Shown here piece after piece: positions 4,072-64,000 of a stretch of 64,000 bases of DNA. Every line of letters begins with the position of its first letter. Position 1 is the stretch's first letter. Made by a program: the position numbers and the translations under genes. The DNA is from a virus (Duplodnaviria > Caudoviricetes), in the IMG/VR virus record IMGVR_UViG_3300020049_008087, positions 21,183 to 85,182 of that record; one strand, written 5' to 3'. The notes under the pieces are model-generated. The model was not told where the DNA came from. It did no database searches and saw only the letters and a list, made by a program, of their open reading frames with translations.

Positions 4072-4100
4072 ATTATAGCAGAAGTGAGATTTACTGTCAA
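4072..4100 (-). promoter_or_regulatory. Sigma70 promoter overlapping the clpP stop codon
   Basis: TTGACA-17-TATAAT. Confidence 0.75.
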
Positions 4101-4693
4101 GTGGTTCGTTTTGTTACAATTCTGTCAACAAGACCATACTCCAATGCTGTTTGTGCGCTCATGAAATTGTCACGCTCCATGTCTGCTGCCAGTTGCTCAA
4201 ATGTTTTGCCTGCACTGTTATGATCAACGTAGATTTGGGTCAGATTCTTTTTCATTTCAAGAATTTCGTTCACTTGAATCAGCATGTCAGTGGCTTGACC
4301 ACGAGCACCACCGCTTGGCTGATGTATCATATGACGAGCATTGGGTAACATGAGTCGTTTGCCTTTTGAGCCAGCTTGCGCTAACAGTGAACCCATACTA
4401 CAGGCTTGACCCATTACAATAGTGCTTACATCTGGTGCCACAAACTGTAGTGCATCATAGATTGCCATACCTGCGGTAACCGAACCGCCGGGGCTGTTGA
4501 TGTACAGATTGATATCTTTGTTGGTGTCTTCGCTTTCCAGGAAGAGCAGTTGAGCTACGATGAGATTTGCCATTTGGTCACTCACTTCACCTTCAAGTAA
4601 GATAACTCGGTCACGCAGCAGGCGACTGTAGATATCAAATACTCTTTCTCCGCGACTTGAATTTTCTAAAACCATTGGAACTAATGAGGACAT
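4097..4693 (-). CDS. clpP: ATP-dependent Clp protease proteolytic subunit
   Basis: [20 protein letters not shown]; catalytic triad motifs ACSMG, MIHQP, ERDNFM. Confidence 0.97.
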
Positions 4694-45609: not shown

Positions 45610-45638
45610 ATTATAGCACAAGATGCTCTTTGTGTCAA
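45610..45638 (-). promoter_or_regulatory. Sigma70 promoter positioned to give a leaderless tilS mRNA
   Basis: TTGACA-17-TATAAT ends 6 nt before ATG; no SD. Confidence 0.7.
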
Positions 45639-45889: not shown

Positions 45890-46327
45890 TTATGTTACTT
45901 TGTTTCGTTCAAAGCTACGCCACATGTTTTTACCAGCTGAGGTCTGGGTAGTACTGGGTTTGATATCGTTGCCTAACTCTCTGACAAACTTATACACTTC
46001 TGTTGCGACTCCTTTCTTTTGGTGGCTGTACTGTACATTCACATTGCCACCGATTATATAAGGATCTTTTTTAATACCCACTCTGAACCCAAACATGTTT
46101 CGTCTTTCTGGGTCATAATCTATAATCACGAATCTGAAATTGCCAATTTTATTGCCTTTATCATCCGTTGCAGTTACCATGAACTGGTGAGGCTGACTGG
46201 TATCCATGCCATGCGCAACCAAAGTCAATGGACCAATTCCTGGAACCTCAATCTTTTTTTCACTGTGGAAATCCTTTAAGGCCAACTTGGGATTTATTAC
46301 TTCAGTTACAAATTCGTTAGCTCTCAT
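45890..46327 (-). CDS. MRANEF-tagged protein, GNAT-like
   Basis: V...HQKKGVATEVY (motif A-like) and QTSAG..MW. Confidence 0.6.
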   Translation of the reverse strand: MRANEFVTEVINPKLALKDFHSEKKIEVPGIGPLTLVAHGMDTSQPHQFMVTATDDKGNKIGNFRFVIIDYDPERRNMFGFRVGIKKDPYIIGGNVNVQYSHQKKGVATEVYKFVRELGNDIKPSTTQTSAGKNMWRSFERNKVT

Positions 46328-48213
46328 GTTACTGGTACCACCGTGAATTCGCCTTCGTCACCTTGCCTGTTTTGTCTTAGCCAGTTAATTGCATAATGAT
46401 TGGCCTGTCCTTGATCACTGCGATATACAAAACTGTATACTGCACGACCATCTTGATCTAATATAAACCAACGAGTGTTACCTGGTGGTAGACTGCCGGT
46501 CTCTTGTGCCGGTCGCTGTGGTGCTGCCGCCCGTACATTAAACTCTCTTGGGTCCAGTCCCGGTGGCATCATGCTGGCGCGCCATCTTTGCAACATATCG
46601 TATGCTTCTTGGGTATTACTAACTCTGAATCTATAAACTGAATTGCCTGATCTGACTGCATAAACTTCGTAGTTACCATTGAAATCAACTGGAGGTAGTT
46701 GCCCTTGACTGACACCAGTTAGTTCTTTGTGCAGTGAATCAATTTGTTCTTTTTCTTGTTTGCCTGCCTTGCGTTTTTCTTGTGCGTTTTTAACAAATGC
46801 TTTCAATGCAGCTGCCGGCAGCTCGCCAGCTGAGAATTCAGCAAAGAATTTTATAGTGTCACTGTTGTCACCTTGATCCAGAGTCTTGTACAGTTTCTTC
46901 ATATACTCTTGACGATGCAGTTCGGGCTTCATGGCAATGTCCAAGGACACCACAAAACGCAGCAGGGTATTTTTAAGTTTGTCCGGATCAGCGGCGTACT
47001 CGCCCAGCCAATCACCGCCGGGACTGCGAAACTCTATGTAGCCTGTCTTGGTATTGATGCTGGTATACTTGCTGGTTTGTCCAGTGTGTACAATCTTGCT
47101 GGCCATGGCACTCAAGTTGCCCTGCATCTGGCGCAACATGGTCTGCACCTTGTCAGGATTGGTTTTGGCTATCTGTTGTATCTGAGCCATGGCGCTTTTA
47201 CAATAGGTGTTGCCTGCACGACCAAATTGGTCCAGTACATATTCATCACCCAAGAATATGGCCAGTTTGACATAATCCAGGCGATCCTGGTCAAAGTTGG
47301 GTACACTCACATTCATGTGCAAGCCAGTGCTGTCGTTGGTGTAGCCGCCAATGCGACTGGCCCATTTGGCAACTTTGTCTAGGTCACTCAACATTTCATC
47401 TAAAGGTAGTGGTGGACTGACGAACTCAAGGCCACCATCATCCGGATCATCAGGCTCAAGACTGCTGTCAGGTTCTACCACATACTTGCCGGCTTCTCTG
47501 GTACCGCCATGATAATTTGAACTGGCATTGACCGGGCGTCCAATGGCATCACGAAAGTCAGCAGCCACATCATCAATGCTGACCGTGCCACCTGAGGGTG
47601 CGTCCTGATAGGTCCAGTAAGGCCAGTCCAAGTTGTACTGGTTACCAAAGTCGGACATGGTGCCAATGTCATTGTATGTTAAAAAATTATCAAAATAATC
47701 TTCTTCTTGATAAAACTCGTCACGGAATTCGTCCATGGCTCTTTCATAGTCCGAACCCTCCTCGTCTATTTCAGCTTGCACTCTGGCATCAAACTCATCG
47801 TCGCTTTCATCATCTTGTTGAGCCATTTGTTCACGAACCAATTCATCCAGTCTATTAGAGTTGTTGCTAAGGTATTGATCAAATTGTGTATCTTGATACT
47901 CTGTGTAATTGTCACCCAATGAGTCAAGCGCACTTTGAATAGTAGCGGTGCTGTTATTCATGTCGCCACCTCTAAAGAAGCTAATCACCTCTTGGCGCCA
48001 ACCACGACCAGTGGGGAAACTCTCGTCCATATCATAGTCTGGCTCGCTCTCCATTTCGTAGTCTTCATCACCGTCGGCTGCACCTGGAATGATCATTTCA
48101 AATTCCATGCCTGCTTGGGCATTTATCTTAGACGCCATTTGTTTTAGACTGGTTGGACTCATGCTAACTTCATCCAACATCTGATCTTCGTTTACAAATT
48201 CATGTGCTCTCAT
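46324..48213 (-). CDS. MRAHEF-tagged putative amidoligase (COOH-NH2 ligase fold)
   Basis: GMEFEM, EPDSSL, LEFVSPP, STGLHMNV, KY.SIN, IEFRSPG. Confidence 0.75.
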   Translation of the reverse strand: MRAHEFVNEDQMLDEVSMSPTSLKQMASKINAQAGMEFEMIIPGAADGDEDYEMESEPDYDMDESFPTGRGWRQEVISFFRGGDMNNSTATIQSALDSLGDNYTEYQDTQFDQYLSNNSNRLDELVREQMAQQDDESDDEFDARVQAEIDEEGSDYERAMDEFRDEFYQEEDYFDNFLTYNDIGTMSDFGNQYNLDWPYWTYQDAPSGGTVSIDDVAADFRDAIGRPVNASSNYHGGTREAGKYVVEPDSSLEPDDPDDGGLEFVSPPLPLDEMLSDLDKVAKWASRIGGYTNDSTGLHMNVSVPNFDQDRLDYVKLAIFLGDEYVLDQFGRAGNTYCKSAMAQIQQIAKTNPDKVQTMLRQMQGNLSAMASKIVHTGQTSKYTSINTKTGYIEFRSPGGDWLGEYAADPDKLKNTLLRFVVSLDIAMKPELHRQEYMKKLYKTLDQGDNSDTIKFFAEFSAGELPAAALKAFVKNAQEKRKAGKQEKEQIDSLHKELTGVSQGQLPPVDFNGNYEVYAVRSGNSVYRFRVSNTQEAYDMLQRWRASMMPPGLDPREFNVRAAAPQRPAQETGSLPPGNTRWFILDQDGRAVYSFVYRSDQGQANHYAINWLRQNRQGDEGEFTVVPVT

Positions 48214-48214
48214 A

Positions 48215-49129
48215 TTATTCCTTGCTTTCTTCTACAGCTGGATTGTAGGTCTTAAATAAATTAGGAACATACAATCTGCTACTTGATTTTTTCTCTGCTT
48301 CTTTTAGTGTTGCACCAAAAATATCCATGGGCATCAGCCGTTCTTCATTCTCTCGAAGTTGCTTGCCATTTACAGTTTCACTGATAATGATTTCACTCGG
48401 GCCCGGCTTGCCAGTGGTTTGTGCATGCGACCATTCACTGTAAAGAGACTTGGGGTCAATTCTGTGTCCACTGCCATCAGTGATCTTAAATCCCTGAGGT
48501 CTATTGATTTGCCCAATGATCCACTTAATTCCATCTGATGTTAATTTATCCATGGCAGCAAGTGTTATTTTTTGTTTTTTGACAGTCACCAGATATTGAA
48601 ATAGATTATATATCAATCCACTGTTTGATGAGAAGTTTTTCATTCCCAGTAACCGATCATTGGCCAGATACACCAATGCGTCTATTTTTGAACCACTGGC
48701 AAAAAAATAAATTCTATTTGGACCAGAAGTGAATAAGAAAACTTTTCTTGATCCAATGGTGCCGTCGGCTGTTGCTGCATCAATTATCTGTGCGTCTGAT
48801 AGATTAAGATCACCCAATGATGATGAGAAATCAATCTCATCAACTATTTGGGTTGGCCCTTCTGCTACCGCTTGTTCATCTAATTGGTGCAGTCGCTCTA
48901 CTTGTTTTACTTTTACTCCAGGCAAACTGTCGCCCCATTTTCGTATGAAGTAATTTTTAAAATCATCCAGTTCTGCGTTTGCACTGGCACGAATCTTGTA
49001 CTCTTGCCCATTGGTCAAGTCTACTCTCCACAGATAGTAGTTTGATCTTTGTGATTGAGCCGGCTGAGCACTTACAAAGTGAAATACCCCAGGTGGTGCG
49101 GCTTCAATTACAAATTCTATGGCTCTCAT
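48215..49129 (-). CDS. MRAIEF-tagged two-domain protein (C-terminal domain weakly GNAT-like)
   Basis: Internal AVAEG linker; D.LT.DG.KW motif. Confidence 0.55.
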   Translation of the reverse strand: MRAIEFVIEAAPPGVFHFVSAQPAQSQRSNYYLWRVDLTNGQEYKIRASANAELDDFKNYFIRKWGDSLPGVKVKQVERLHQLDEQAVAEGPTQIVDEIDFSSSLGDLNLSDAQIIDAATADGTIGSRKVFLFTSGPNRIYFFASGSKIDALVYLANDRLLGMKNFSSNSGLIYNLFQYLVTVKKQKITLAAMDKLTSDGIKWIIGQINRPQGFKITDGSGHRIDPKSLYSEWSHAQTTGKPGPSEIIISETVNGKQLRENEERLMPMDIFGATLKEAEKKSSSRLYVPNLFKTYNPAVEESKE

Positions 49130-50121
49130 TTTCTCAATCCAAGTGCAGCCAAATAGCTTTTAAATTTATCATGACGGTCGGCTAAGCCATTCATGTTGGG
49201 GTTGATTGGTTTAGTTACTTGTCTGGTGTCGCTGAAGTTGTCAACGTTGGGTCGTACTCTGGTATTCCAATACCACAGTGCAATTTTGGCAGCTATCATG
49301 GGCTTGCTGGCCAACTCAGGATTTTGTTCCAGTGGCAGATTCAATGCCTCACCTGCTTTACGATAATTTTCGCGCCCAGTGATCTGTATAAAGCCTCTGC
49401 CCTTGAAACGCTCACCATCGCCACGGTATATGTTACCCAAGTCGCGTCTGCCTTCATATGATTTGCCGCTGCTGTATTCATGCATGCTGCTGAAGTTGGC
49501 TGACTCATGTGCGCACTGACTCATAAATGCTGCCAGTTCATGTCCACGCATGCCAGTGTTGACTGCTACTGAGTGTAGCACAGTTTCTAAATTAGAATCA
49601 GTTACAGGTTGATAGACTTGTGCAGCTTTTTTTTGTAACGGCTGTCTTGCATTGGCCAACTTGTCGCCCTGGGTGCGCAGGTCTTTTAGTATGTAGTCTA
49701 AATTGCTTTTACTTGCTGCAGGAGTTTTGGCTTTGGCAGTCTGCTGTGCTGCAACATCACGGTCTTTGAGATAGCGTTGCATCACTGACCAATCGGTGGT
49801 ATCAGCGGCTGCGGCTCCGCCACCCAGTGTTGCTGCTAGGGCTGCTGCGGCTGCTTTACTCTTGATACCTTCATCAACTACTTCACCATCATCGTCAACT
49901 CTATTGCTTGCATCTTCTGCCATCAACTTACTAATACGTGGCTTGAATAACTGTACATCACCCTTGTTAGTCTTTAACACAGGTTGGTTATGTTTGTCTT
50001 TGGTAAAGCCTTTAATCTCTGCGGGACTATTCTTAAATTTACCTTTAAGAATCCTGTCACCAACATTTAATTCAGGTGGTTGATAGGACCCAGCTTCAGT
50101 TACGAATTCATTAGCTCTCAT
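49126..50121 (-). CDS. MRANEF-tagged glycoside hydrolase family 19 (lysozyme/chitinase-like)
   Basis: AAFMSQCAHES, YEGRRDLGN...GDG.RFKGRGFIQITGRENY, TK.IN...NGL.DR. Confidence 0.88.
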   Translation of the reverse strand: MRANEFVTEAGSYQPPELNVGDRILKGKFKNSPAEIKGFTKDKHNQPVLKTNKGDVQLFKPRISKLMAEDASNRVDDDGEVVDEGIKSKAAAAALAATLGGGAAAADTTDWSVMQRYLKDRDVAAQQTAKAKTPAASKSNLDYILKDLRTQGDKLANARQPLQKKAAQVYQPVTDSNLETVLHSVAVNTGMRGHELAAFMSQCAHESANFSSMHEYSSGKSYEGRRDLGNIYRGDGERFKGRGFIQITGRENYRKAGEALNLPLEQNPELASKPMIAAKIALWYWNTRVRPNVDNFSDTRQVTKPINPNMNGLADRHDKFKSYLAALGLRK

Positions 50122-51032
50122 GCTCGTTTTCTTAGTAGGAAAAAGGTACCCGCACCCTCTTGAGCATTCTCAAGGTCTCCATCAGCTGGATACTGATCGG
50201 GTGTTAACAATTCATATGCGCCTGACAATCTTTTAACCATGTGTTGATATAGTTTGGCGCGACTGGGTTCACTGGCACTGAACGAAATCCAAACTGGCTT
50301 TTCAGTTTTGATATATCTATTTATTGCATCTACTACTGTGGCAAATATCTGTGCTGCTGCACCTTTGCCAGTGATGTCCATGCTGCCACCTCTGTTAAAA
50401 CTGATGTCAACAATTCCGTTTCTCATTGGAACAAAGTTTATATTAATAGTTCTGCCGTCATTGTCGTAGGCAGTGGCATACAATTCATCTTTAGATTTAA
50501 CACCTTGGATACTTGGACCCGGCATTCTTTCCCACTCTAATGGTAAAGCAGTGCTTTGGTCAAACAGCTCGGTTAGTTCTTGGTTTTTAGTTGCACTTTG
50601 CTTTAAACGAGTTAATTCGTACACAACAAGAGTGCCAGTTTCTGCTCTAAATGCTCTATATCCTGCCGACTTAGCATAACGCTGAACTAATCGGTCATAC
50701 AATTTGGATCTGCTTTGAGTACTTTGTCCTGGATCAACCTCTTTGCTTGCTGAAAATGTCAAACGCTTTGGTTGGTGTTCTTTGATGAATTGTTGTATGG
50801 CATTTAATACAGTCGCAAATATCCTTTGTGCATCACCCTCACCAGTAACTGCTTGGCTGTTACTTCTATAGAACTCAACCTGCCACTCATCACCTTCGTT
50901 ATTGAACATGATGCTTAAATTTGAACCGTCTGGTAATTTGGCCAATACATCATAACTACCAGACTCACTTTTTTCAATATCCGTTGAATAGGGTTGGTCA
51001 AACGCTTCTACTATAAATTCTTTTGCTCTCAT
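50118..51032 (-). CDS. MRAKEF-tagged protein with an internal tandem domain duplication
   Basis: Two copies of TG.G.A..IFATV..AI..(F/Y)I....P....FSAS...SR.KLY..(L/M)V.R. Confidence 0.7.
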   Translation of the reverse strand: MRAKEFIVEAFDQPYSTDIEKSESGSYDVLAKLPDGSNLSIMFNNEGDEWQVEFYRSNSQAVTGEGDAQRIFATVLNAIQQFIKEHQPKRLTFSASKEVDPGQSTQSRSKLYDRLVQRYAKSAGYRAFRAETGTLVVYELTRLKQSATKNQELTELFDQSTALPLEWERMPGPSIQGVKSKDELYATAYDNDGRTININFVPMRNGIVDISFNRGGSMDITGKGAAAQIFATVVDAINRYIKTEKPVWISFSASEPSRAKLYQHMVKRLSGAYELLTPDQYPADGDLENAQEGAGTFFLLRKRA

Positions 51033-51919
51033 TTAATCTTGTCCCATTTATCTACTAGCATATTTTTAAGTGTAACTGTGTTTGGGATTTTATTTTTACG
51101 CATATAATCATTTATCTTGATTGCAGTTGGGTAATCAGTTGAATTAGGTTTACGAGCATTGCTCATGTCTACTCCCAAATTACTATCTGCTTCAGGATAT
51201 CTGCTGCCATAATAGACTAAATCATAGCGAAGTTTTTCTGCACGAGGAGTCAAGTCTGCTTTATTATTTTTGTAAATTAATTCTAACCAAGGTTCAAGAT
51301 ACAGCGTGTGCGGTCTACTTGGAGTAAACCCTTTCTGCGGCTGACCTTTGAGTACAGGTGCAGCTTGCGCGATACCCAATGCGTTGCGAGTATCTTGCAG
51401 TCGCCAAGCTTTTTCATCAGTGTAAAGGTAAGCAGGTATTCCTGCTTTCTTAGCAAGTATTAATATTTGTCTGGTTTCAGGACTGCGTGTTTCACTTTGC
51501 TCTTTGAGTAGTACATGCACACCTCGTACACCACTAATTGGAATCGAGGGCTCTTTTGCGAACACACGGTCTTCTGATTCTCGTGTACGATCAGGACTAT
51601 GTTGCCATGCGCGATCCCAATAATCAATTGGCTTAACTGGATAGCGTTGACTGAACCAATTGCCATCCAGCACAAACATTACTCCACCTGTTCCCACGTA
51701 TCTGTGATAGTCTCCAACTCGGCTGCGAGTAGTGCTAAAGAAATACTGATAGCCCTTGGGAGCATACTGTTCTTCACTCCGGTTGCCCACTACACTGCTT
51801 AACTCAAATGCACCTGATTGCAGAATACGCAGAGCACTGGGTGTGCCGGTATAGTGATACAACACACTGGTTGCACCTTCGGTTACGATTTCTTCAGTGA
51901 TGAATTCACTTGCTCTCAT
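51029..51919 (-). CDS. MRASEF-tagged protein, possible ADP-ribosyltransferase fold
   Basis: LYHYT ... FSTTRS ... ESEDRV, in the order expected for ART strands. Confidence 0.45.
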   Translation of the reverse strand: MRASEFITEEIVTEGATSVLYHYTGTPSALRILQSGAFELSSVVGNRSEEQYAPKGYQYFFSTTRSRVGDYHRYVGTGGVMFVLDGNWFSQRYPVKPIDYWDRAWQHSPDRTRESEDRVFAKEPSIPISGVRGVHVLLKEQSETRSPETRQILILAKKAGIPAYLYTDEKAWRLQDTRNALGIAQAAPVLKGQPQKGFTPSRPHTLYLEPWLELIYKNNKADLTPRAEKLRYDLVYYGSRYPEADSNLGVDMSNARKPNSTDYPTAIKINDYMRKNKIPNTVTLKNMLVDKWDKIK

Positions 51920-52494
51920 TGGAATATCTCAGGGTGCTTCTTGCCCCAAATTTTTATGTATTTACCAGCAACCATGTCAGCCAGCATTTCAATGGGACTA
52001 CCAGGATAGCTGTCGCCATCTTTTATCATGCCCAATTGCATTTGTCGTTCGTGTGTTAGTTCGTGTATGACTGTTCTCAATATATCTACTAGACTTCTAT
52101 TTTTAACATAGATCCATATACTATTACCATGATGAGAACCAGTATGGTGGTTTCCCTGCGCTTCCTCAGTGTCGTAACTGAGTGTAAACTTGGGGTAGGG
52201 TTTTTCAATGTTTAACAGATTGTAGCACCATTTGATACACTGTTGTATATGCTCAATCTTTTGTTCTTTGGATAGTGTAATGCTCTCAGACAGTTGGTGT
52301 TTTATCCAATCGTCGGGAGTTTCATCGTACTGGTCTACAAATAGATCATGTAATTTCTTGCCAGTAATGCCATGCTTGTCACTGATTGCTGTCATTAATT
52401 TATCTATGGTATCATAGTCGTGCTTGGGCAAATCAGGCAGCTGGTCAGCTAATTCTGATTGTGGGGATTCCGTAATAAATTCATTTGCTCTCAT
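51916..52494 (-). CDS. MRANEF-tagged protein with a zincin HExxH motif
   Basis: RTVIHELTHERQ...E..AD. Confidence 0.65.
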   Translation of the reverse strand: MRANEFITESPQSELADQLPDLPKHDYDTIDKLMTAISDKHGITGKKLHDLFVDQYDETPDDWIKHQLSESITLSKEQKIEHIQQCIKWCYNLLNIEKPYPKFTLSYDTEEAQGNHHTGSHHGNSIWIYVKNRSLVDILRTVIHELTHERQMQLGMIKDGDSYPGSPIEMLADMVAGKYIKIWGKKHPEIFQ

Positions 52495-52504
52495 AGTATA
52501 GTAT

Positions 52505-53209
52505 TTATGATACTTTAGCTAAACCCAATTTATCAAGCACCTTGATATAAGCCCAACCCATGTCAAATTCATACCATTTAATAGAGAATTTGGCACTGGC
52601 TGGCTGTAGATGGTGATTGTTATGCAGTTCTTCACCCCCAATTACAATGCCAACTGCACTTATGTTGGTGCTGTGGTCTCTGGATTCACCGTTGCGATAG
52701 CCCAGCCAGTGTGCCACACCGTTGATTACACCCGCAGCCCATATGGGGATCCAAAGCATTTGAATAGCCCATATCAACAGTCCCCAGCCATTGAACAGCA
52801 CAACATCAATGACTAACATACAGGTAATGCCCAGTTTGCTGTGCAGTGTGTACAAGTTGTTCTCTATCCAGTCTGTGGGAGTTCTTTTACCATATTGCTC
52901 AACCATTTCTGCATCACTAGTGGCTTCATGATACAAGAATGCACCCTTTAGCAGCACAGTAAATATACCCCACACATGTGGACTGTGTGGATCACCTGGT
53001 TTATCTGAATACACATGATGTTTACGATGCACAGCCACCCATTGTTTTGTAACCATGCCTGTGGTCAACCATAGCCAAAATCGCATAAAGTGACTGACTG
53101 CTGGATGAAACTGAACCGCCATGTGTGCTTGGCTTCTGTGTAGGTATAGTGTAACGCACATGATGGTAATGTGTGTCATCACCAGTGTGTAGATGAGTTC
53201 TGTTGGCAA
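52505..53209 (-). CDS. Membrane fatty acid (delta-9-like) desaturase
   Basis: His boxes HRSQAH, HRKHH, HNNHH; D..GDPHSP; TTG start. Confidence 0.9.
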   Translation of the reverse strand: MPTELIYTLVMTHITIMCVTLYLHRSQAHMAVQFHPAVSHFMRFWLWLTTGMVTKQWVAVHRKHHVYSDKPGDPHSPHVWGIFTVLLKGAFLYHEATSDAEMVEQYGKRTPTDWIENNLYTLHSKLGITCMLVIDVVLFNGWGLLIWAIQMLWIPIWAAGVINGVAHWLGYRNGESRDHSTNISAVGIVIGGEELHNNHHLQPASAKFSIKWYEFDMGWAYIKVLDKLGLAKVS

Positions 53210-53242
53210 AATATTCTCTTTATAAAAGCTCACTTTTAAAAT

Positions 53243-53305
53243 GCATCGGGGCACGACTCCCTATCATTTTAAGGCAGCAGCCGCCTATCACGGTCCTAAG
53301 CGTGA
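53243..53305 (-). ncRNA. Candidate structured RNA in the desaturase leader
   Basis: GC-rich island with three hairpins (CACG/CGTG, AGGC/GCCT, GGG/CCC) and a repeated TGATAGG. Confidence 0.3.
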
Positions 53306-53877
53306 ATTCTTTTGATTCTGTCTTTGATGAGGTCTACTACCTGTTTGTTCATTACGATTTCATAATGATTTTGAGCAATGTCTATGAGTTCCATATCTTG
53401 CCCATGATGTCGTTGACTGGATACGGTTACTACGCCGTCATTGTCTTGTAGGATCCAGGGGCTGGATCCTCTGGTAGTGACCACATTACACCAGGGATGA
53501 CGTATATGCATTTGATCTGCCTGTCGCATAGCCCAACTGCTGGGCCCAATGTCTTTGAGCAGTCTGCTATAGGGCATGAAATACTTGGCCACATCTGCCA
53601 CTTCGGCACCACCATAGGGAGTGCTCAGAGTAACTGCGCCCAATACCTGTTGAGGCATAGCGTTGGCCAAGTGCAGTGCATAGATACCACCCAAGCTGTG
53701 ACAAATGAAGAATACGTTGTTATGATTTTCCAATTGGTACAACATGTTGGCCAGATTTTTCTGAAAGCCATTTCTGCTGTCATACTCAATCACCATGTCA
53801 TTGCCACCAATATGTTCTCTGATATAGTTGAAGCTTTCGCTGGTGGCGCTGGCGCCATGTATATACACTAACAGCAT
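53296..53877 (-). CDS. Alpha/beta hydrolase (lipase/esterase-like)
   Basis: HGAS oxyanion motif, CHSLGG nucleophile elbow, DNDGVV, NH. Confidence 0.85.
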   Translation of the reverse strand: MLLVYIHGASATSESFNYIREHIGGNDMVIEYDSRNGFQKNLANMLYQLENHNNVFFICHSLGGIYALHLANAMPQQVLGAVTLSTPYGGAEVADVAKYFMPYSRLLKDIGPSSWAMRQADQMHIRHPWCNVVTTRGSSPWILQDNDGVVTVSSQRHHGQDMELIDIAQNHYEIVMNKQVVDLIKDRIKRIHA

Positions 53878-53958
53878 ATTAATGCGGGCTATATGGATTC
53901 AGTGGTCTATCTGACTCTTGTTCCTGCGGAGGATAAACTGGATAATCGTTTGGTCCCA

Positions 53959-54399
53959 TTATTCTCTTTCCTTCTTTAGTACACTGCGCAGCATCCAGCC
54001 ATGCTTACCATGAGCATCAATGCGTTCAGCTATGAAGTTGGCAATGCCCTGATTTGTTTCGTTGGCTATGGGGAAGATTTCATTCAACAGCATGAGCATC
54101 TTGCTGTTATCTTCGTATAGCTCAGCGATCATCAACTGTGCTCTGGGGATTTTAGTTTGTTCTTGTATGACGCTTAACTCTGCAAACCGTGCCATGCTGC
54201 CTGGTGTATAGGTGTCTAGTACACGAATAAACTCAGCACTACGGTCAATGGTATTGTCATACACTTCACTGTATAGATCACCAAAGAATTCGTGTAGCTG
54301 TGGAAAATCACTGCCCTCCACGTTCCAGTGAAAGTTCTGTGCTTTGATACTAAACACATAGCTGGTTGCCAATAAAACTTTTAAACTGTCTGCTAACAT
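53959..54399 (-). CDS. dps: Dps / ferritin-like DNA starvation protection protein
   Basis: NFHWNVEG..F..LHE.F..LY...D..AE.IR; K..WML. Confidence 0.92.
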   Translation of the reverse strand: MLADSLKVLLATSYVFSIKAQNFHWNVEGSDFPQLHEFFGDLYSEVYDNTIDRSAEFIRVLDTYTPGSMARFAELSVIQEQTKIPRAQLMIAELYEDNSKMLMLLNEIFPIANETNQGIANFIAERIDAHGKHGWMLRSVLKKERE

Positions 54400-54400
54400 A

Positions 54401-55651
54401 TTAATGCCTCAATAGTAATGTACTCAATACGCCTGGATCGTTTGCACTCACATCGCCTTCACCAGGTGCAACTATCACATTGTATTTTAATCCGGTAGTG
54501 CGGCCTTTGGCCATGTACTCATCGTAACTCAATATACTTGATGGACTGATGTTGTATGCTTGAGCCAAACGTTGTTTGATTTCTTTTAATGCGTCAGGGC
54601 TAGCAGGTTGCCAAGCACCACCCTCTGTCTTTTTCAAGTTTCCCTTTTCATCTTTGGCCAACAAGTCATAGAATAACTTCTCAGGAACAATGCGACTGTT
54701 CTTTGTACGTTCTAGCCCCGGGTCTTGCGCTTTAACTTGTTTCTCTTGTGAGGTGTGAGCACCTTCACTCCAGTTGATGATAAAGTTATCTGGCTTCTTG
54801 GCTAGTGCAGCACCAGCCATTTTAGTATAAGCATAGAACTTAACGTTAGGATGTTGTGCAGCCATTTTCAATGCTAAATCTAAATATTCCGGGCTGAAGA
54901 AGTCACCGGCATCATGCCAACGTACTGTTACTTGCCAGCCGTTCTCAAATCCCTTTGAGCCTTTTGCGCCTGCTTGTTCTTCTTTGGTGATCTCTGCACT
55001 CAATTGACTGAAGAATCCAGTTGGATCATTCAACAGATATGTTAGGATTCTGCCGTCACTTAACCAAGCTGCCTTGAATTGTACTTTGCCGCCCTTCATG
55101 GCGAAACAATCAACCTTACATGCGCCTGCTCCAGGGCATGTGTTAACTACAATCAGTTTACCAGTTGATTCGTCTACAGCGATACCAGTTAGAGCAGCGA
55201 AACCCACATTGAAGAACTGTTCAAATTCTCCATTGCTGTGCTTCATCTTCTCATTTTGCTTTAGTAACCGCTTGGGACGCTGGGTCAATGCATTGATGAT
55301 TGCATCTTCTCTGAATTGTTTACCAGCCTCGTCATAGTACTCAATGGCACTACTACGATGAACATATGGTAACTTGTATTTGTCTGTTTTGGTTTTACCT
55401 GTTTTATATGCTTGTACACCCTTGGCACTGACCTTACCTGGAACATCAGTTCCTTTGATACGTGTCATATAGTCTTGAAACTCTTGTCCACCCAGTTCAC
55501 GCTGTGATGCAGGTAACTTTGTGGCTTCATCAACTTCTTGCTGTGCTGTGGAAACAAATTCCTCTGGACTCATAATTTTAATGCCAGTGGCTGCACCTGG
55601 TAAACTTGGCGCCGCCTCTTCGTTCTCTGTTAAAAATTCATGTGCTCTCAT
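54401..55651 (-). CDS. MRAHEF-tagged GP88-like Fe-S/radical-SAM-like protein
   Basis: TCPGAGACKVDCFA (Cx5Cx3C), RWHDAGDF, YAYTK; start moved to MRAHEFLTE, 1 nt after the upstream stop. Confidence 0.65.
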   Translation of the reverse strand: MRAHEFLTENEEAAPSLPGAATGIKIMSPEEFVSTAQQEVDEATKLPASQRELGGQEFQDYMTRIKGTDVPGKVSAKGVQAYKTGKTKTDKYKLPYVHRSSAIEYYDEAGKQFREDAIINALTQRPKRLLKQNEKMKHSNGEFEQFFNVGFAALTGIAVDESTGKLIVVNTCPGAGACKVDCFAMKGGKVQFKAAWLSDGRILTYLLNDPTGFFSQLSAEITKEEQAGAKGSKGFENGWQVTVRWHDAGDFFSPEYLDLALKMAAQHPNVKFYAYTKMAGAALAKKPDNFIINWSEGAHTSQEKQVKAQDPGLERTKNSRIVPEKLFYDLLAKDEKGNLKKTEGGAWQPASPDALKEIKQRLAQAYNISPSSILSYDEYMAKGRTTGLKYNVIVAPGEGDVSANDPGVLSTLLLRH

Positions 55652-55652
55652 A

Positions 55653-56582
55653 TTATTTCTTCTTTGGTACACAGTTGGGCACTGTCTTGCCGTTCTTTTT
55701 CTTGGTGCCCAGTTGTCTGTAATCTTTCCAGCAGGGATCCTCATTGCTTGAATCTTCGCTCACGCCTTTACTTCCATGATTTTTCCATTCTACACCATAA
55801 GCGGTATCTAAGCGTTTTACTTCAGACTTATTCATTGAGGTTAAATCTCTAGCATATTTCTGATTAAATCCAGTTGGATCTTCACCGGCACCATATTTGT
55901 CTGTTGCTTTATGTTTAATTCCACTGGGAGTTTTTGTTACTTCACCTTCCGCCACACCCTCTTTATCACCATAGACAGCAGGCATTGCCTTTTCAAATTT
56001 CTCACGTTCTTCTGCCTGTTTCTTTAACAAGCTGAACAATCTGTCAGCACCCTTTTCAGGATCGTATCCTGCTTTTTTAAGACCCTTGTTGAACTTTTCA
56101 CGGGCAGAGGGTTTTTCTGTTTCGGCTACTGCTTGTTGTCTACCTTCCAAATACTGACGCACTGAGTTCAAATAGTCTGATGCTTTGGTGATCTTGGCCT
56201 GTACCCATCCATCTAGACCTTGCATTTCGCTCACGTTACTCAGCATGTCGCAAATCTGTTTGGCATTTTTAGCTGACTGATATAGATCACCGCGCGCCAT
56301 TTCTACTTCATGGTCTGGTCTTTTGCTGATTAATCCGGGCTTTAATTTATGTCCTTGACCGGGCATGAGTATGAAATCTTCTTCACTCAGTGTTGCTTCG
56401 CTGACTCCCTGGGCTATGCTGCTAATAGCTGCATCTTGCTCGTAGAAGGGTTTTTTAGTAGTTTTACCTTTAAACAAGCTGCCAGTACGTTTTTGCATTT
56501 TGCCCACTGGTTGGGCAACTGATGCCACTGATCCTGAACCAGTAGCGCCTGCAGTCATTTCTGTGATATTTTCTATTTTCAT
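55653..56582 (-). CDS. Modular internal-head-like protein (MKIENITE start; multiple (G/A)V(A/S)E sites)
   Basis: DHEVEMA...WVQAKIT.ASDYL module; DPCWKDY...GK.VPNCVP module. Confidence 0.65.
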   Translation of the reverse strand: MKIENITEMTAGATGSGSVASVAQPVGKMQKRTGSLFKGKTTKKPFYEQDAAISSIAQGVSEATLSEEDFILMPGQGHKLKPGLISKRPDHEVEMARGDLYQSAKNAKQICDMLSNVSEMQGLDGWVQAKITKASDYLNSVRQYLEGRQQAVAETEKPSAREKFNKGLKKAGYDPEKGADRLFSLLKKQAEEREKFEKAMPAVYGDKEGVAEGEVTKTPSGIKHKATDKYGAGEDPTGFNQKYARDLTSMNKSEVKRLDTAYGVEWKNHGSKGVSEDSSNEDPCWKDYRQLGTKKKNGKTVPNCVPKKK

Positions 56583-56653
56583 GATTAATCAAGTCCTATT
56601 GTATATTTATCAGAATTAAATCAAACCTGAAAAAGTATCAGGTAATTGTTTCC

Positions 56654-56701: not shown

Positions 56702-59700
56702 TTAGAAGTAGACTTGATACCAACTTGGTATACTGTCAATCACACCCGCATAGACAAATGTCAGTAGCATCCCTGAATTACTAACAGCCGTATCCGCATA
56801 CATAAAGTCATATGTTCCTCCTGTGCCAAACCATAAGCCCGCTTGTTGCCCACTGCCAAAAGTACGAACTCTTTGTCCAGTTGCTGGTTTGTAGATTATT
56901 CTTTTAGTACCTGTAGCGGTGGTTGCTGTGCCTGTGCCAGAACCAGCGCCAGTTGCAACAAAGGTAGCACCCGTGCCGCTATAAGGCGCACCAATTGGCG
57001 TCCAGCTTGTATCGCCTACTGTAAGAATAGTATAACTTTCACCTATTACAAATGAACCTGCATTTACTGTAGTTTGGACTGAGCTTGTTGCAACATTAAA
57101 CACATCACCTACGGCTGGGCTCGGCGGAAATTCAATAACCATATAATTATTGCTGTCAACTTTGCTATCGTTAATCCATAAAGTTTTTGTATTTGGTACT
57201 GCTTGTATACCTAATGCAGTTTGAGAACTTAGAGTAATTGTAGCAATATTATTTTGGTAATCATTAAATGAATCCATAGTACCTGACAATGTATACGCTG
57301 TCCAATCTCCTACCACTGTATTAGAAAATACAACAACATCGGTGTATGGTAACATACCAGAACCAGCAGGATTACCTGCTACCCAAGTCAATGTACCAGA
57401 ACCGTCGTTGTTTAAGTATCCACTGGCATCTGTTGGTAATGTTGTACCTCCACCGCCACCTCCTAGTACACTAGCACCAGTACTATCGTTAATAGTACCG
57501 CCTGCAGGTAATGTTAAGTTACCATTATTGTCAAATGTCCATGCATATTCTGTGCCACCATTTGATCCACCATTATATACTTTTACGTTTGCACCAGCGG
57601 GTGTTGCTTCAAATTGACTGAATACATTCGGTCCATTCATATTGCTTACTGACTGCAATCTTGCAACACCATTGCTGCCGTCATTCATGGCATATAAGTT
57701 TAAATTCCCGCCAAAAGAATAAATTGACGACTCTTTGTAAGATGGTACTTGAAAAGTAGTAGTGTCAAAGGTCCAACTTGTATCAATACCTTCAAAATCT
57801 AATCCAATTCTAAACTCATCTCTTTGAAGTTGTGTTCTTGAGTGAATAGTACCAACACCATCAACCACAATTTGTCTAACCCCGTAATCATCATCTGCGG
57901 CATCAACTGCGGCTATAGTAATATTTTCATCAGCTTTACCGTAGATAGTGCGGTCAGTAGCAAACGTCCAAGTCATGCTATCATTGTTTACTCCGATAAC
58001 TAAGTTGCCATCTGCACTAGCAATGTTAGCATAACTATTACCATTAACTATACTAGTGGGTGGGGTAACCTCGGCACCACCACCAATATTAGTTTTACCA
58101 ACTGTAAGATTACTAGAACTACTGGTTGGGGTAACACTAGTATTAGTTACATTATTAGTTTCTGTGTTGACTGTTGCCGCCACTGAAGTTGTTGATTCAG
58201 TTGTCCAATCTAGAGTTACTGAACTAATGACATATTGACCATAGATGCCATCTGTATTTTCACCATCAATTGGGAAATTGATAACAATACCTACATATTC
58301 CGGTGATGCATTATTGAGATATGAATTGGCTGCTATAGTAACATGTGTACTATTACAATCTATATACTGTGCATCATAGTCATTTTGCGGCCCGATTTCC
58401 CCAGTATTTCCTCCGAAGGTACGAGTAATTCTTTTAGTCCACTCTACACTACCGTCATTACCGCTAATACGTGCAACATACAATGTGTAGTCATTATCTT
58501 CATCAGATGTAAGGATATAGCCGCCATCAGGTGTTGCTGTTCCTCTGAACTCGTTATTCCAACTTGGATTATCGTCAATAGTTACTTGCCATATAATAGA
58601 ACCATCACTGCTATCTATTTTAGTAACAGTACCATTCTCATCTACTGTAATTATGTTACCGTCAGCTAATAAATCAACACTGGTAACATGTCCCCCTGTA
58701 TTATTGGCAGGATCAACATAGACTGCCCATTCTTGATTACCAGCAATGTCGTGCTTAATTACCAATGAGCCTCTGTTGTTACCATTCCACATATAACCCA
58801 CTGCATAATTATCACCTGAACTAGTGTCAACTACTACAGAATGTAATCTATCGTAGTCTGCAAGTCCTATGTTCTTAGACCAACCAGTACCACCAATACG
58901 GCTTATAAATGCTTGATTGTTTAGTTGGTATTCAAATGATAATGAATTGCCAATTTCAGCACCCCAATCTTTACCTCCGGATCCTTGACAGAAAACGTCA
59001 CTGATTGGAGTACCGGTTTTGTTAGATACTGCGGCATCTATGTTGTTGCTATTGTCAGCAAACACTACAGGATCAAAGTCAAATACAAAGTCGTTGACTC
59101 CATCAACGCCACCTAAGTTACTACCTAATACTCTTATTGATTGAGGGCTAGACCAACCACTGATTACACCACTCCAGCCGTTAACTCTAATGATATTATA
59201 TGTACCGCCTTCAACGGCTGATACCTGTATACCAAGTCCACTTCCTGTACCATCAGGACTTGCTGTTACGTAGGTACCATTCATTATAACGTTATAGTAA
59301 CCGCCCACTGTGTAATTTAACTGACTACCTGATTGCACTCCACTAGCATTGAATTCAGTCCAACTTACATATAGTTTGTCAGTAGTACTTGGTGCTAACG
59401 GTGTAAATGTTTTTTGTAAATTTTCGTCATAAGTTTCCCCTACAACCAAAGCATTAACAATGCCGCCGCTTGGATCAACACTGAATACACCGTCATTTAT
59501 CTTCATTCCATTGTCAGAAGTGAATTCAATATTAGTACTTGGTATAATACTACCATCAGCAGGATCAATGAAATATGTAAAGCCCGCATCATTAGTATTA
59601 GTGCCATATCTACCAAGAGCAAGTAAAGTTGGAATGCTAGATACAACAACATATTCCAATGAAACAATTTGAACATATTCAGCATCAATGTTGCCTGATA

Positions 59701-61105
59701 TTATGTTCTTACTCCATTGTTGAACTCCTAAACTATTAAATTTTATAATACCACCATATCGCTTACTCTCGTTATCGTCATAATATGAATAACTGATATA
59801 ACTGTTACCATCACTGTCCATGGCTACTGCTTCCATATCAGCACGCCTATTATCACCAGTATGTACTAGTTCATTAAAGTAACCATATTGTTGTGCTGTT
59901 AAATAAGCAGTAGTTTGTGTAGAACCATCTGGAAATTCTAACCCACCATCTGTACCAAACTTCCAAACACTTACTGTACCTTCGTCGAGACTAGAACCAA
60001 TCTCAACACCTTGTTGAGAATCTGGATTTGAACTATAAAGTCCTGGCAATTTAACATAATTGTAGTCATCACCGAAGAATAAATCAGTTGAACCGTCTTG
60101 TCCTGCTGGACGCATAATGTGTAAGTGTTCTGGCCCACCGACTTCTGGCATTGCTCCAAACTCAATTCCACCTCGGGCAGTTGCCATACTAATAACGCCA
60201 GAACTGTTTACAGTTACGTTGTAGCTTCCTGAGGAGATTTGATTGGTTGCGCCACCACCTCCACCACCACCCAATACACTAGCACCAGTGCTGTCAACGA
60301 TGTCGCCACCAGCTGGTAATTTCAAATCACCTCCACTAAATGTCCAACTACCACTGGTGTTGTGTAGAACAATATTACCCGGAGTACTAATTTCAAATAT
60401 ACCGGTTTCTTGATCTACACTAACATCGCTACCACCGCCTGGACCAGGGAATGTTAGTGTACCACTGTCATTGAATACCAACTCTAGATCACCGCTTACT
60501 AACTTATCTGAAGATCCGCCACCAGGTAAACTTTGATTCTGCCATTTTTCTTGGCTCTGATTCCACGTCAATACTGAGCCATCAACTGGACCTTCTAATT
60601 GTACATCATCTAAATCTGCTAAACTACTTGCACCACCGCCACCAATGTTAGTGATTTCTCCAGCACGAACCTTTGGACGGTAGGGAATCTGTGTCCAATC
60701 ACCTGTATTAAAAGACACAAACGGGTTGGCAACTACTGTAGCCCACATGTTACCAGCTTCTGCTCTGGTCTTATCAGCAGACTCAAATACACCCGCTGTT
60801 TCTACATTAATCTCGTCAATCTCACCATCGTCTAACTCATCTACGCTATACTCAGCGGCTATATAAGAAGAACTGGGAGTTGTACCGGATAGTACTAAGT
60901 AACGAGAGTTGTCAATAACTGTAACATTACTGGCGTTATTACCAAATGTATCTGGATTATTACCATCACGCTCATCAACTTCTTCTACAAAATATGTAGC
61001 TGCTTGTGACAGTCCAGGAATAGCAATAGCTGTTGCTCCTGCTTCTAAATCAAGTCCACCAATGCGTAGTTTTGATTCTTGTATTTCAAATGCTTTATTT
61101 GCCAT
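56702..61105 (-). CDS. Long tail-fibre/structural protein with beta-propeller-like region
   Basis: Gly/Thr/Asn-rich; LxDLxDV...VL.W...KW repeat; W.F...G.L.LP modules; repeated blade-like D..GN.Y...Y/W units. Confidence 0.75.
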   Translation of the reverse strand: MANKAFEIQESKLRIGGLDLEAGATAIAIPGLSQAATYFVEEVDERDGNNPDTFGNNASNVTVIDNSRYLVLSGTTPSSSYIAAEYSVDELDDGEIDEINVETAGVFESADKTRAEAGNMWATVVANPFVSFNTGDWTQIPYRPKVRAGEITNIGGGGASSLADLDDVQLEGPVDGSVLTWNQSQEKWQNQSLPGGGSSDKLVSGDLELVFNDSGTLTFPGPGGGSDVSVDQETGIFEISTPGNIVLHNTSGSWTFSGGDLKLPAGGDIVDSTGASVLGGGGGGGATNQISSGSYNVTVNSSGVISMATARGGIEFGAMPEVGGPEHLHIMRPAGQDGSTDLFFGDDYNYVKLPGLYSSNPDSQQGVEIGSSLDEGTVSVWKFGTDGGLEFPDGSTQTTAYLTAQQYGYFNELVHTGDNRRADMEAVAMDSDGNSYISYSYYDDNESKRYGGIIKFNSLGVQQWSKNIISGNIDAEYVQIVSLEYVVVSSIPTLLALGRYGTNTNDAGFTYFIDPADGSIIPSTNIEFTSDNGMKINDGVFSVDPSGGIVNALVVGETYDENLQKTFTPLAPSTTDKLYVSWTEFNASGVQSGSQLNYTVGGYYNVIMNGTYVTASPDGTGSGLGIQVSAVEGGTYNIIRVNGWSGVISGWSSPQSIRVLGSNLGGVDGVNDFVFDFDPVVFADNSNNIDAAVSNKTGTPISDVFCQGSGGKDWGAEIGNSLSFEYQLNNQAFISRIGGTGWSKNIGLADYDRLHSVVVDTSSGDNYAVGYMWNGNNRGSLVIKHDIAGNQEWAVYVDPANNTGGHVTSVDLLADGNIITVDENGTVTKIDSSDGSIIWQVTIDDNPSWNNEFRGTATPDGGYILTSDEDNDYTLYVARISGNDGSVEWTKRITRTFGGNTGEIGPQNDYDAQYIDCNSTHVTIAANSYLNNASPEYVGIVINFPIDGENTDGIYGQYVISSVTLDWTTESTTSVAATVNTETNNVTNTSVTPTSSSSNLTVGKTNIGGGAEVTPPTSIVNGNSYANIASADGNLVIGVNNDSMTWTFATDRTIYGKADENITIAAVDAADDDYGVRQIVVDGVGTIHSRTQLQRDEFRIGLDFEGIDTSWTFDTTTFQVPSYKESSIYSFGGNLNLYAMNDGSNGVARLQSVSNMNGPNVFSQFEATPAGANVKVYNGGSNGGTEYAWTFDNNGNLTLPAGGTINDSTGASVLGGGGGGTTLPTDASGYLNNDGSGTLTWVAGNPAGSGMLPYTDVVVFSNTVVGDWTAYTLSGTMDSFNDYQNNIATITLSSQTALGIQAVPNTKTLWINDSKVDSNNYMVIEFPPSPAVGDVFNVATSSVQTTVNAGSFVIGESYTILTVGDTSWTPIGAPYSGTGATFVATGAGSGTGTATTATGTKRIIYKPATGQRVRTFGSGQQAGLWFGTGGTYDFMYADTAVSNSGMLLTFVYAGVIDSIPSWYQVYF

Positions 61106-61123
61106 GTTATATTATTCCTTTAA

Positions 61124-63896: not shown

Positions 63897-64000
63897 TTAT
63901 GAATTGCCCCCGTCTAATATGGTTGTGTATTGCGTAGTGGCATCGCCGCCGTCTGCACTATTTATCGCTATTTGTGTGGTCAGTGCGGTCAGTGCATCTG
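63897..64000 (-). CDS. 3' end of an upstream structural gene (...SADGGDATTQYTTILDGGNS), partial
   Basis: Manual translation; open frame to the right edge; DGG repeats. Confidence 0.6.
   Translation of the reverse strand, partial: DALTALTTQIAINSADGGDATTQYTTILDGGNS

Follow-up and report, generated by a model that had tools for sequence, protein, structure and literature searches.

A nine-residue leader on unrelated proteins of an uncultured T4-related giant phage: a probable capsid-targeting sequence

Why should eight genes in one block of a phage genome, whose products show no other detectable kinship, all begin with the same nine amino acids? The question is raised by a stretch of 64,000 nucleotides (the window), positions 21183-85182 of the 85,182-bp IMG/VR contig IMGVR_UViG_3300020049_008087, which is about 24% complete. 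Eight open reading frames (ORFs) on its minus strand open with the tag MRAxEF(V/I/L)xE. The DNA polymerase of the contig has 42-49% identity with its counterparts in the jumbo phages Phosso, Atu_ph07, Vibrio 2.275.O, XaC1 and CBB, and the source is an uncultured giant phage related to T4, with a genome of about 335-350 kb; the closest relative, here called G006, has a genome of 335 kb, 95% complete, and a DNA polymerase 82% identical to that of the window phage. The answer proposed here, at a probability of roughly 0.68, is that the tag is a capsid-targeting propeptide of the T4 type.

A leader shared by unrelated proteins

The tag is found at the starts at 46327, 48213, 49129, 50121, 51032, 51919, 52494 and 55651; the last was placed immediately after the upstream stop, since the alternative at 55744 would overlap the upstream gene. 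These starts and their peptides had been listed in an initial annotation of the window, and all of them were recovered with the same coordinates and readings. The DNA pattern ATGAGAGCNNNNGAATT is matched eight times, in each case on the minus strand, whereas 100 shuffled sequences gave 0.00 matches on average. The motif search that the annotation had proposed for the remaining DNA was carried out as a six-frame scan of the whole contig: among ORFs of at least 60 residues, EF[VIL]xE occurs solely at these eight starts. The bodies are indeed unrelated, as had been claimed; once the tags are stripped, pairwise BLAST finds no significant similarity between them (best E-value 0.069).

A shared start of this kind may be conserved as a peptide or as DNA. 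In 24 tags that were gathered through the neighbouring DNA polymerase, and thus independently of the tag sequence, all four Ala codons are used, as are TTT/TTC, GAA/GAG, AGA/CGA/AAA and seven different codons at position 7; the genome censuses of tags display the same synonymous variation, and the DNA upstream of the eight window starts is unrelated. Orthologues of the zincin-like protein, found through its body, drift at the amino acid level too (MNTNEIIVE, MKTHDFVNE, MITESFVGE, MLSESIILE): among the best 120 of 1243 homologues, 86 conform to M-x(2-5)-hydrophobic-hydrophobic-x-E, and Glu occupies position 9 in 88, while others have it at position 8, in a shifted register. Because synonymous codons vary, upstream DNA is unrelated and orthologues keep the chemical pattern, selection, as read from these comparisons, is acting on the tag peptide, most strongly on its last Glu. 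The initial annotation had itself named a fatal alternative, in which the tag is conserved as DNA only, to signal translation initiation; the synonymous codon variation and the amino acid drift in orthologues contradict it.

The tag is also portable between unrelated proteins, judging from its distribution. A scan of IMG/VR recovered at least 119 loci on more than 100 contigs, with the tag standing at ORF starts in the loci listed; among the matches listed, 181 tagged proteins fall into at least 41 families unrelated by BLAST. The tag has been kept in one member of the ADP-ribosyltransferase (ART)-like family (L076) despite the deletion of the N-terminal half of the protein, and in the window copy of this family the tag end is doubled, to ITE-EIVTE. 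Upstream of the DNA polymerase, the window contig has eight tagged genes and relatives have zero to three different ones, which clearly marks this stretch as a hot spot where genes turn over.

The commonest tagged family is a tandem pair of proteins of about 125 residues, which accounts for 79 of the 181 among the matches listed; every large relative has it, close to the terminase (for example L203:4970-5730, that is G006 74969-75729; also L044, L061, L028, L007 and many others). Both members of the pair end in (P/G)FKGY(K/P)(K/R), and the GNAT-like tagged family has a similar ending, PKGxKGY.

Likeness to the T4 head-loading system

The comparison with phage T4 had been suggested in the initial annotation, by the claim that its internal proteins IPII and IPIII carry the tag MKTYQEFIAE; the fetched ipII and ipIII sequences do start in this way, and ipI starts MKTFKEFTS...ITE. 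Other T4 head proteins have N-termini of the same general kind, namely gp24 (MAKINELLRE), gp22 (MLKEQLIAE), gp21 (MNEPQLLIE) and gp67 (MEGLIE). When the window and T4 sequences are compared, both present a short N-terminal leader that ends in hydrophobic-x-Glu on unrelated bodies, as is characteristic of cargo bearing a capsid-targeting sequence (CTS), where such leaders have about 7-19 residues. The leader is 9 residues long here and 10 in T4, the core E-F-(I/V/L)-x-E and the terminal Glu are common to the two, and a one-residue gap aligns E5, F6, the hydrophobic residue 7 and E9 of the tag with E6, F7, I8 and E10 of the T4 sequence; unrelated bodies, a variable locus and, in relatives, a T4-type head module complete the likeness. 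One window protein, moreover, has an ADP-ribosyltransferase fold, as T4 Alt does; Alt belongs to an ART class different from the DarT/Tpt1-like fold. In T4, the first 10 residues of IPIII suffice for incorporation into the head, targeting depends on residues 4 and 7 of the CTS and processing on residues 8 and 10, and Asp at position 10 leaves targeting intact while blocking the cut (PMC9026906). A review has proposed that the CTS may be an evolutionary device by which T4-like phages load varied proteins (PMC9026906), and the diverse internal proteins of the T-even phages have nothing but the CTS in common (PMC3012670); thus, the principle is already known. The two systems differ in consensus (MRAxEF.xE rather than MKTYQEFIAE), in the masked twin-arginine translocation (Tat) signals or polyprotein organization of some tagged proteins of relatives, and in the predicted cargo, which here consists mostly of enzymes of 15-70 kDa, encoded by eight genes in one block, in contrast to small basic proteins. 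The polymorphic internal-protein loci of T-even phages resemble the present one in that close relatives differ in gene content but retain the leader (PMC3012670; PMC9026906); scale, enzyme content and position, which here is between tail-fibre genes and the replication module, are different.

Evidence on cleavage comes from Tat signals in relatives. In six of their tagged proteins (L009:2992, L045, L055, L106, L108:413, L153:7855) a Tat signal, [ST]RRGFL..., lies exactly two residues after the tag Glu, and untagged versions start M-SRRNFM. In a seventh case (L066:2916-5027, minus strand) the signal is internal, at residue 426 of a 704-residue polyprotein, after NINE|AI; this polyprotein is composed of the tag, an ART-like domain, a GNAT-like domain, LysM and a phage lysozyme domain. 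The geometry supports processing because an internal signal peptide works only if a cut exposes it, and the Tat spacing hence argues for a probable cut after the tag Glu, at hydrophobic-x-Glu.

A protease that would make such a cut accompanies the tag in relatives. Exactly one PF03420 protease (Peptidase_S77, gp21-type) was found in each of the six large tag-bearing genomes (245-525 kb), and wherever a tag-bearing genome is complete enough for a judgement, it has a prohead protease of the gp21 type. The gene order of G006 is T4-like: portal (PF07230), an acidic protein, the protease, a coiled scaffold-like protein and a capsid protein of the gp23 family (PF07068). The G006 protease is 32% identical to T4 gp21 (E 4e-21); the Pfam match of the capsid protein begins at residue 54, after the sites LLE7, LLE19, ILE34 and LAE43 in the propeptide. 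T4 gp22 matches the scaffold-like protein at E 0.017 only, so that homology of the scaffold rests on gene order. Five leader-bearing genes form a syntenic block upstream of the G006 polymerase, and the genome has about a dozen candidates overall; 29 of its genes match a relaxed N-terminal pattern, versus 5-18 at internal control offsets.

To the left of the window, the same contig encodes an Fe/Mn superoxide dismutase (L225:2314-2868, minus strand) with MRDIITILE ahead of the Pfam domain, a leader conserved in G006, and an NT5C-like nucleotidase starting MKIHELTE (L225:5245-6207, minus strand); each of these genes lies behind a CATAAATA motif, and both may be further leader-bearing cargo.

The promoter motifs are of a late type. 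The T4 late consensus is TATAAATA; this exact form is not enriched in the window, and the shorter NATAAATA is the informative one. ATAAATA occurs 26 times in the contig; 18 of the 26 are on the coding strand of a gene and no more than 80 nt upstream of its start, against about 2 expected from the share of such positions. The same placement holds for 70 of the 110 NATAAATA copies of G006, where the genes behind the motif include the portal, the terminase, large tail genes and leader-bearing genes; in both the contig and G006 the motif is often just 4-25 nt from the ATG. By its positions, NATAAATA behaves as a real promoter element. Minus-strand copies in the window lie at 52502-52509, 56604-56611 and 63959-63966, and the first two precede the two units of the cassette by 7 and 21 nt: CATAAATA (52502..52509) is 7 nt before the gene starting at 52494, the first of a seven-gene tagged run, while GATAAATA (56604..56611) is 21 nt before the start at 56582 and is itself preceded by an intrinsic terminator that follows a 1467-residue fibre-like gene. 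The G006 orthologue of the 56582 gene has GATAAATA 24 nt upstream. The cassette units may be expressed late, along with the head genes.

Two other phage groups invite comparison. In the phiKZ-like giant phages SPN3US, phiKZ and 201phi2-1 the prohead protease, a related enzyme, processes ejection or inner-body proteins: it cuts, after a Glu, many of the proteins packaged in the head, and prohead targeting has been ascribed to their propeptides. The motif there is A/S/G-x-E, the propeptides are mostly longer than 100 residues, no short shared leader has been described and the lineage is another one (PMC5694885). An assignment of the tagged proteins to the phiKZ/SPN3US type of ejection protein was discarded, since the window leader has 9 residues and I/V/L at P3. 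The KVP40-like vibriophages were represented by the Vibrio phages nt-1 and D491s (loci L205 and L206), which are cultured and have a gp21 system. Their DUF6934 homologues of the fifth tagged protein start MIIFEA and adjoin an Alt-like gene starting MIGFQELNE, and in nt-1 a neighbouring gene starts MIEFLTEA. These leaders are shorter and have another consensus; no paper was found that describes them as CTSs, and it is possible, from their sequences, that they are CTS variants working on the same principle.

Weighing the capsid-targeting reading

If the tag is a capsid-targeting propeptide, the following sequence of events can be envisaged. The tagged genes would be transcribed late from NATAAATA promoters; the nine-residue leader would bind the scaffolding core of the assembling prohead, with enclosure of the attached protein; a gp21-type prohead protease would cut after Glu9, at a motif in which P3 is hydrophobic, P2 is free and P1 is Glu; the mature enzymes would be retained in the DNA-filled head, and would exit with the DNA at the next infection. 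Core binding, cleavage, head retention, ejection and action on the host are steps that we infer; the portability over at least 41 families is no more than consistent with a leader that suffices for loading. The initial annotation had described an expandable cassette of packaged and injected effector enzymes addressed by a common zip-code. This is supported in part: the address holds up, as a leader that is probably peptide-level, portable, similar to the T4 CTS at the mapped residues and endowed with a gp21-type cleavage motif and late-type promoter motifs, while the term effector derives from domain content.

A number of points tell against this reading. The evidence for it is sequence-based throughout, and hydrophobic-x-Glu is a motif of low information. 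Tyr4, a targeting residue in T4, has no conserved counterpart in the tag. Neither a Peptidase_S77 protease nor head genes were found in the contig itself, which lacks the head module because it is a fragment (about 24% of the genome); therefore, the link between tag and protease rests on relatives, and the search for a gp21-like protease that had been recommended succeeded in the six large tag-bearing genomes and failed in the contig. The tag and the Tat signal could together constitute one long export signal in the producing cell, in which case the GH19 proteins would be exported endolysins and not head cargo. Several searches for the system elsewhere were negative: the cassette DNA gave no megablast match among GenBank phages, a degenerate tag pattern had no match in the five cultured relatives named above, and the 125-residue tagged family had no match in GenBank phages by tblastn or in PHROGs. 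A blastn search of GenBank phages with a 30-nt consensus tag returned noise only, and among the papers in the literature set searched that mention the capsid-targeting sequence, dating from 2012 onwards, none deals with uncultured T4-related jumbo phages.

The capsid-targeting reading has a possible extension, a two-stage addressing, which is tentative and appreciably less probable than the reading it builds on. The leader would load the head and be cut off; in the muramidases, the cut would expose a masked Tat or Sec/SAR (signal-arrest-release)-type signal, and the translocon of the new host would re-export the injected enzyme to the periplasm. The cassette would then amount to a kit of enzymes made in advance (ART, zincin, amidoligase, acetyltransferase-like and GH19), open to free exchange and active before the expression of any phage gene.

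Among the rivals, the one that survives best, though it is unlikely, accepts that the leader targets the prohead core and is cut, and holds that the tagged proteins are assembly or core components like T4 gp67 and gp68, degraded or expelled in maturation and not delivered. The T4 core proteins that are destroyed do have similar N-termini, as seen above for gp22, gp67 and gp21, and the conserved 125-residue tagged pair in every large relative resembles a core function; against this, the window proteins have sizes of 15-70 kDa and are folded enzyme domains (GH19, amidoligase, ART fold, zincin), and their content varies between close relatives in the manner of T4's internal proteins and of Alt, unlike conserved scaffold parts.

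Somewhat less probable still is a leader through which a cytoplasmic protease, for instance a phage ClpP with a host unfoldase, recognizes the proteins (an N-terminal degron or recognition tag), and which limits the lifetime of potentially toxic late enzymes. The window does encode a ClpP (4097-4693, minus strand, PF00574, E 5e-79), as does G006, which is one more point to be set against capsid targeting, and the ART-fold, muramidase and protease bodies are potentially toxic. Agreement of the tag with the T4 CTS at the functionally mapped residues speaks against a degron, and so does the highest conservation of Glu at the last position, as expected of an endoproteolytic P1 residue; the Tat signals, fixed two residues behind this Glu and internal in one case, imply a precise cut and not processive degradation.

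A mainly nucleic-acid role for the conserved start, as a translation-initiation or coupling element (there are ATGA overlaps and no Shine-Dalgarno) or as short homology for gene swapping, is very improbable. It can draw on the five of eight starts that overlap the upstream stop as ATGA, which forces A as the first base of codon 2, on the use of AGA in all eight window copies and on the clear turnover at the locus. Yet this overlap constrains the first base of codon 2 only, and the starts that do not overlap carry tags equally; no more than 13 of the 27 bases are invariant, there is variation at synonymous positions, CGA replaces AGA elsewhere, and orthologues drift in DNA and amino acids while keeping hydrophobic-hydrophobic-x-Glu. 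The tag as a recombination joint was considered separately and rejected, as too few bases are fixed.

Just as improbable is a leader that addresses another destination in the producing cell, either the membrane or periplasm, as the n-region of an export signal, or a phage-made compartment: several GH19 proteins of relatives have the tag directly before a complete Tat signal and the window GH19 has an Ala/Gly-rich hydrophobic segment, but behind the tag a hydrophobic signal is absent from most of the proteins, seven of the eight here among them, the tag itself is short and acidic, and the Tat motif also occurs internally after hydrophobic-x-Glu, where only prior cleavage could expose it. The tag as a Sec or Tat signal peptide in itself was likewise rejected: it is acidic, with two Glu, has no h-region, and in relatives the Tat signals come after it. 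No rival matches the capsid-targeting reading on the combination of T4-like residues, terminal Glu, fixed Tat spacing and co-occurrence with a gp21-type protease.

The cassette and what it may deliver

All genes of the cassette lie on the minus strand. Upstream of it (56702-63895, minus strand) are two large tail-fibre-like genes, one for a product of 923 residues with Mtd_N and the other for the product of 1467 residues, with a PQQ-like beta-propeller and Gly runs. The cassette opens with a 309-residue protein (55653..56582) that bears the variant leader MKIENITE; the internal GVSE (twice), AVAE and GVAE sites reported for it are all present. Its homologues start MKINQIILE, MRFNQIVE or MKINDIIKE, and the first V-S/A-E|A site is kept in them. 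The C-terminus of this protein (55653-55740) carries a Cys motif, DPCWKDY...G.K..G..VPNCVP, which in relatives forms the C-terminal module of proteins with nothing else in common (L024, L073, L200) and resembles the ends of several PHROGs that carry no functional annotation.

The next gene encodes tagged protein 8 (54401..55651; MRAHEFLTE), with a GP88-family body; orthologues of this body carry the leaders MKITELYEG or MKFQELFEG. Three untagged genes (52505-54399) separate this first tagged gene from the run of seven and belong to the same late-type unit; they encode a ferritin/Dps-like protein (53959..54399; PF00210), an alpha/beta-hydrolase (53296..53877) and a fatty-acid desaturase (52505..53254, the start of which may be the ATG at 53179).

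The seven-gene run begins with tagged protein 7 (51916..52494; MRANEFITE), a member of a family of more than 1200 proteins of uncultured viruses. It had been called a zincin, an assignment that is weak, as it is based on the HExxH motif HELTHE and a weak Peptidase_M78 lead only; a cluster look-up of three homologues held at NCBI returned neither names nor isolates. Tagged protein 6 (51029..51919; MRASEFITE, followed by the doubled EIVTE) had been labelled ART-like, and this is backed at the level of the predicted fold. The AlphaFold2 (AF2) model, with a predicted local distance difference test (pLDDT) score of 75.7, is matched by Foldseek to DarT and Tpt1/KptA (best E 5e-4, probability 1.00; top matches E 5e-4 to 1e-2, probability 0.99-1.00), which points to an ART core; residues 1-15 of the model are unstructured, which counts in favour of a leader. 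In tagged protein 5 (50118..51032; MRAKEFIVE) Pfam finds two DUF6934 repeats.

Tagged protein 4 (49126..50121; MRANEFVTE) comprises a small module, the site VDE84|GIKSK, a 17-residue Ala/Gly-rich hydrophobic segment without an RR motif and a GH19 muramidase catalytic domain; comparable segments occur in relatives. The small module, residues 10-67 (49920-50094), is about 55 residues long (SYQPPELNVGDRILKGKFKNSPAEIKGF...) and is situated directly behind the tag, as it also is in two proteins of relatives with different bodies (L053, 458 residues; L050, 401 residues), so that on sequence grounds it appears to be a second mobile unit. Tagged protein 3 (48215..49129; MRAIEFVIE) has a weak structural lead to a GNAT fold. 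Tagged protein 2 (46324..48213; MRAHEFVNE) consists of an acidic N-terminal region and an Amidoligase_2 domain; for this protein, as for the GH19 and GP88-like ones, Pfam gave the family that had been named. Tagged protein 1 (45890..46327; MRANEFVTE) is small, and had been described as GNAT-like on the basis of a conserved QxxGxA-type motif only, again a weak assignment. For four unannotated bodies, sequence searches of the PDB found nothing below E 0.1. The downstream end of the cassette is marked by a perfect sigma-70-type promoter (45610..45638, minus strand; TTGACA-17-TATAAT with TG), which opens a replication-gene unit.

T4 head-loading has so far been known mainly for three small proteins and Alt. 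If the capsid-targeting reading is true, it would extend to a large clade of uncultured freshwater giant phages, in which the same principle would serve a much larger and rapidly exchanged set of enzymes; this would change the view of how much "first-minute" biochemistry a phage brings into the cell. Dozens of protein families would be flagged as likely anti-host or anti-defence cargo, the tag being a simple sequence rule for flagging packaged proteins in metagenomes, and for delivering proteins with phage particles it would offer a loading tag that is short, natural and, as it seems, general.

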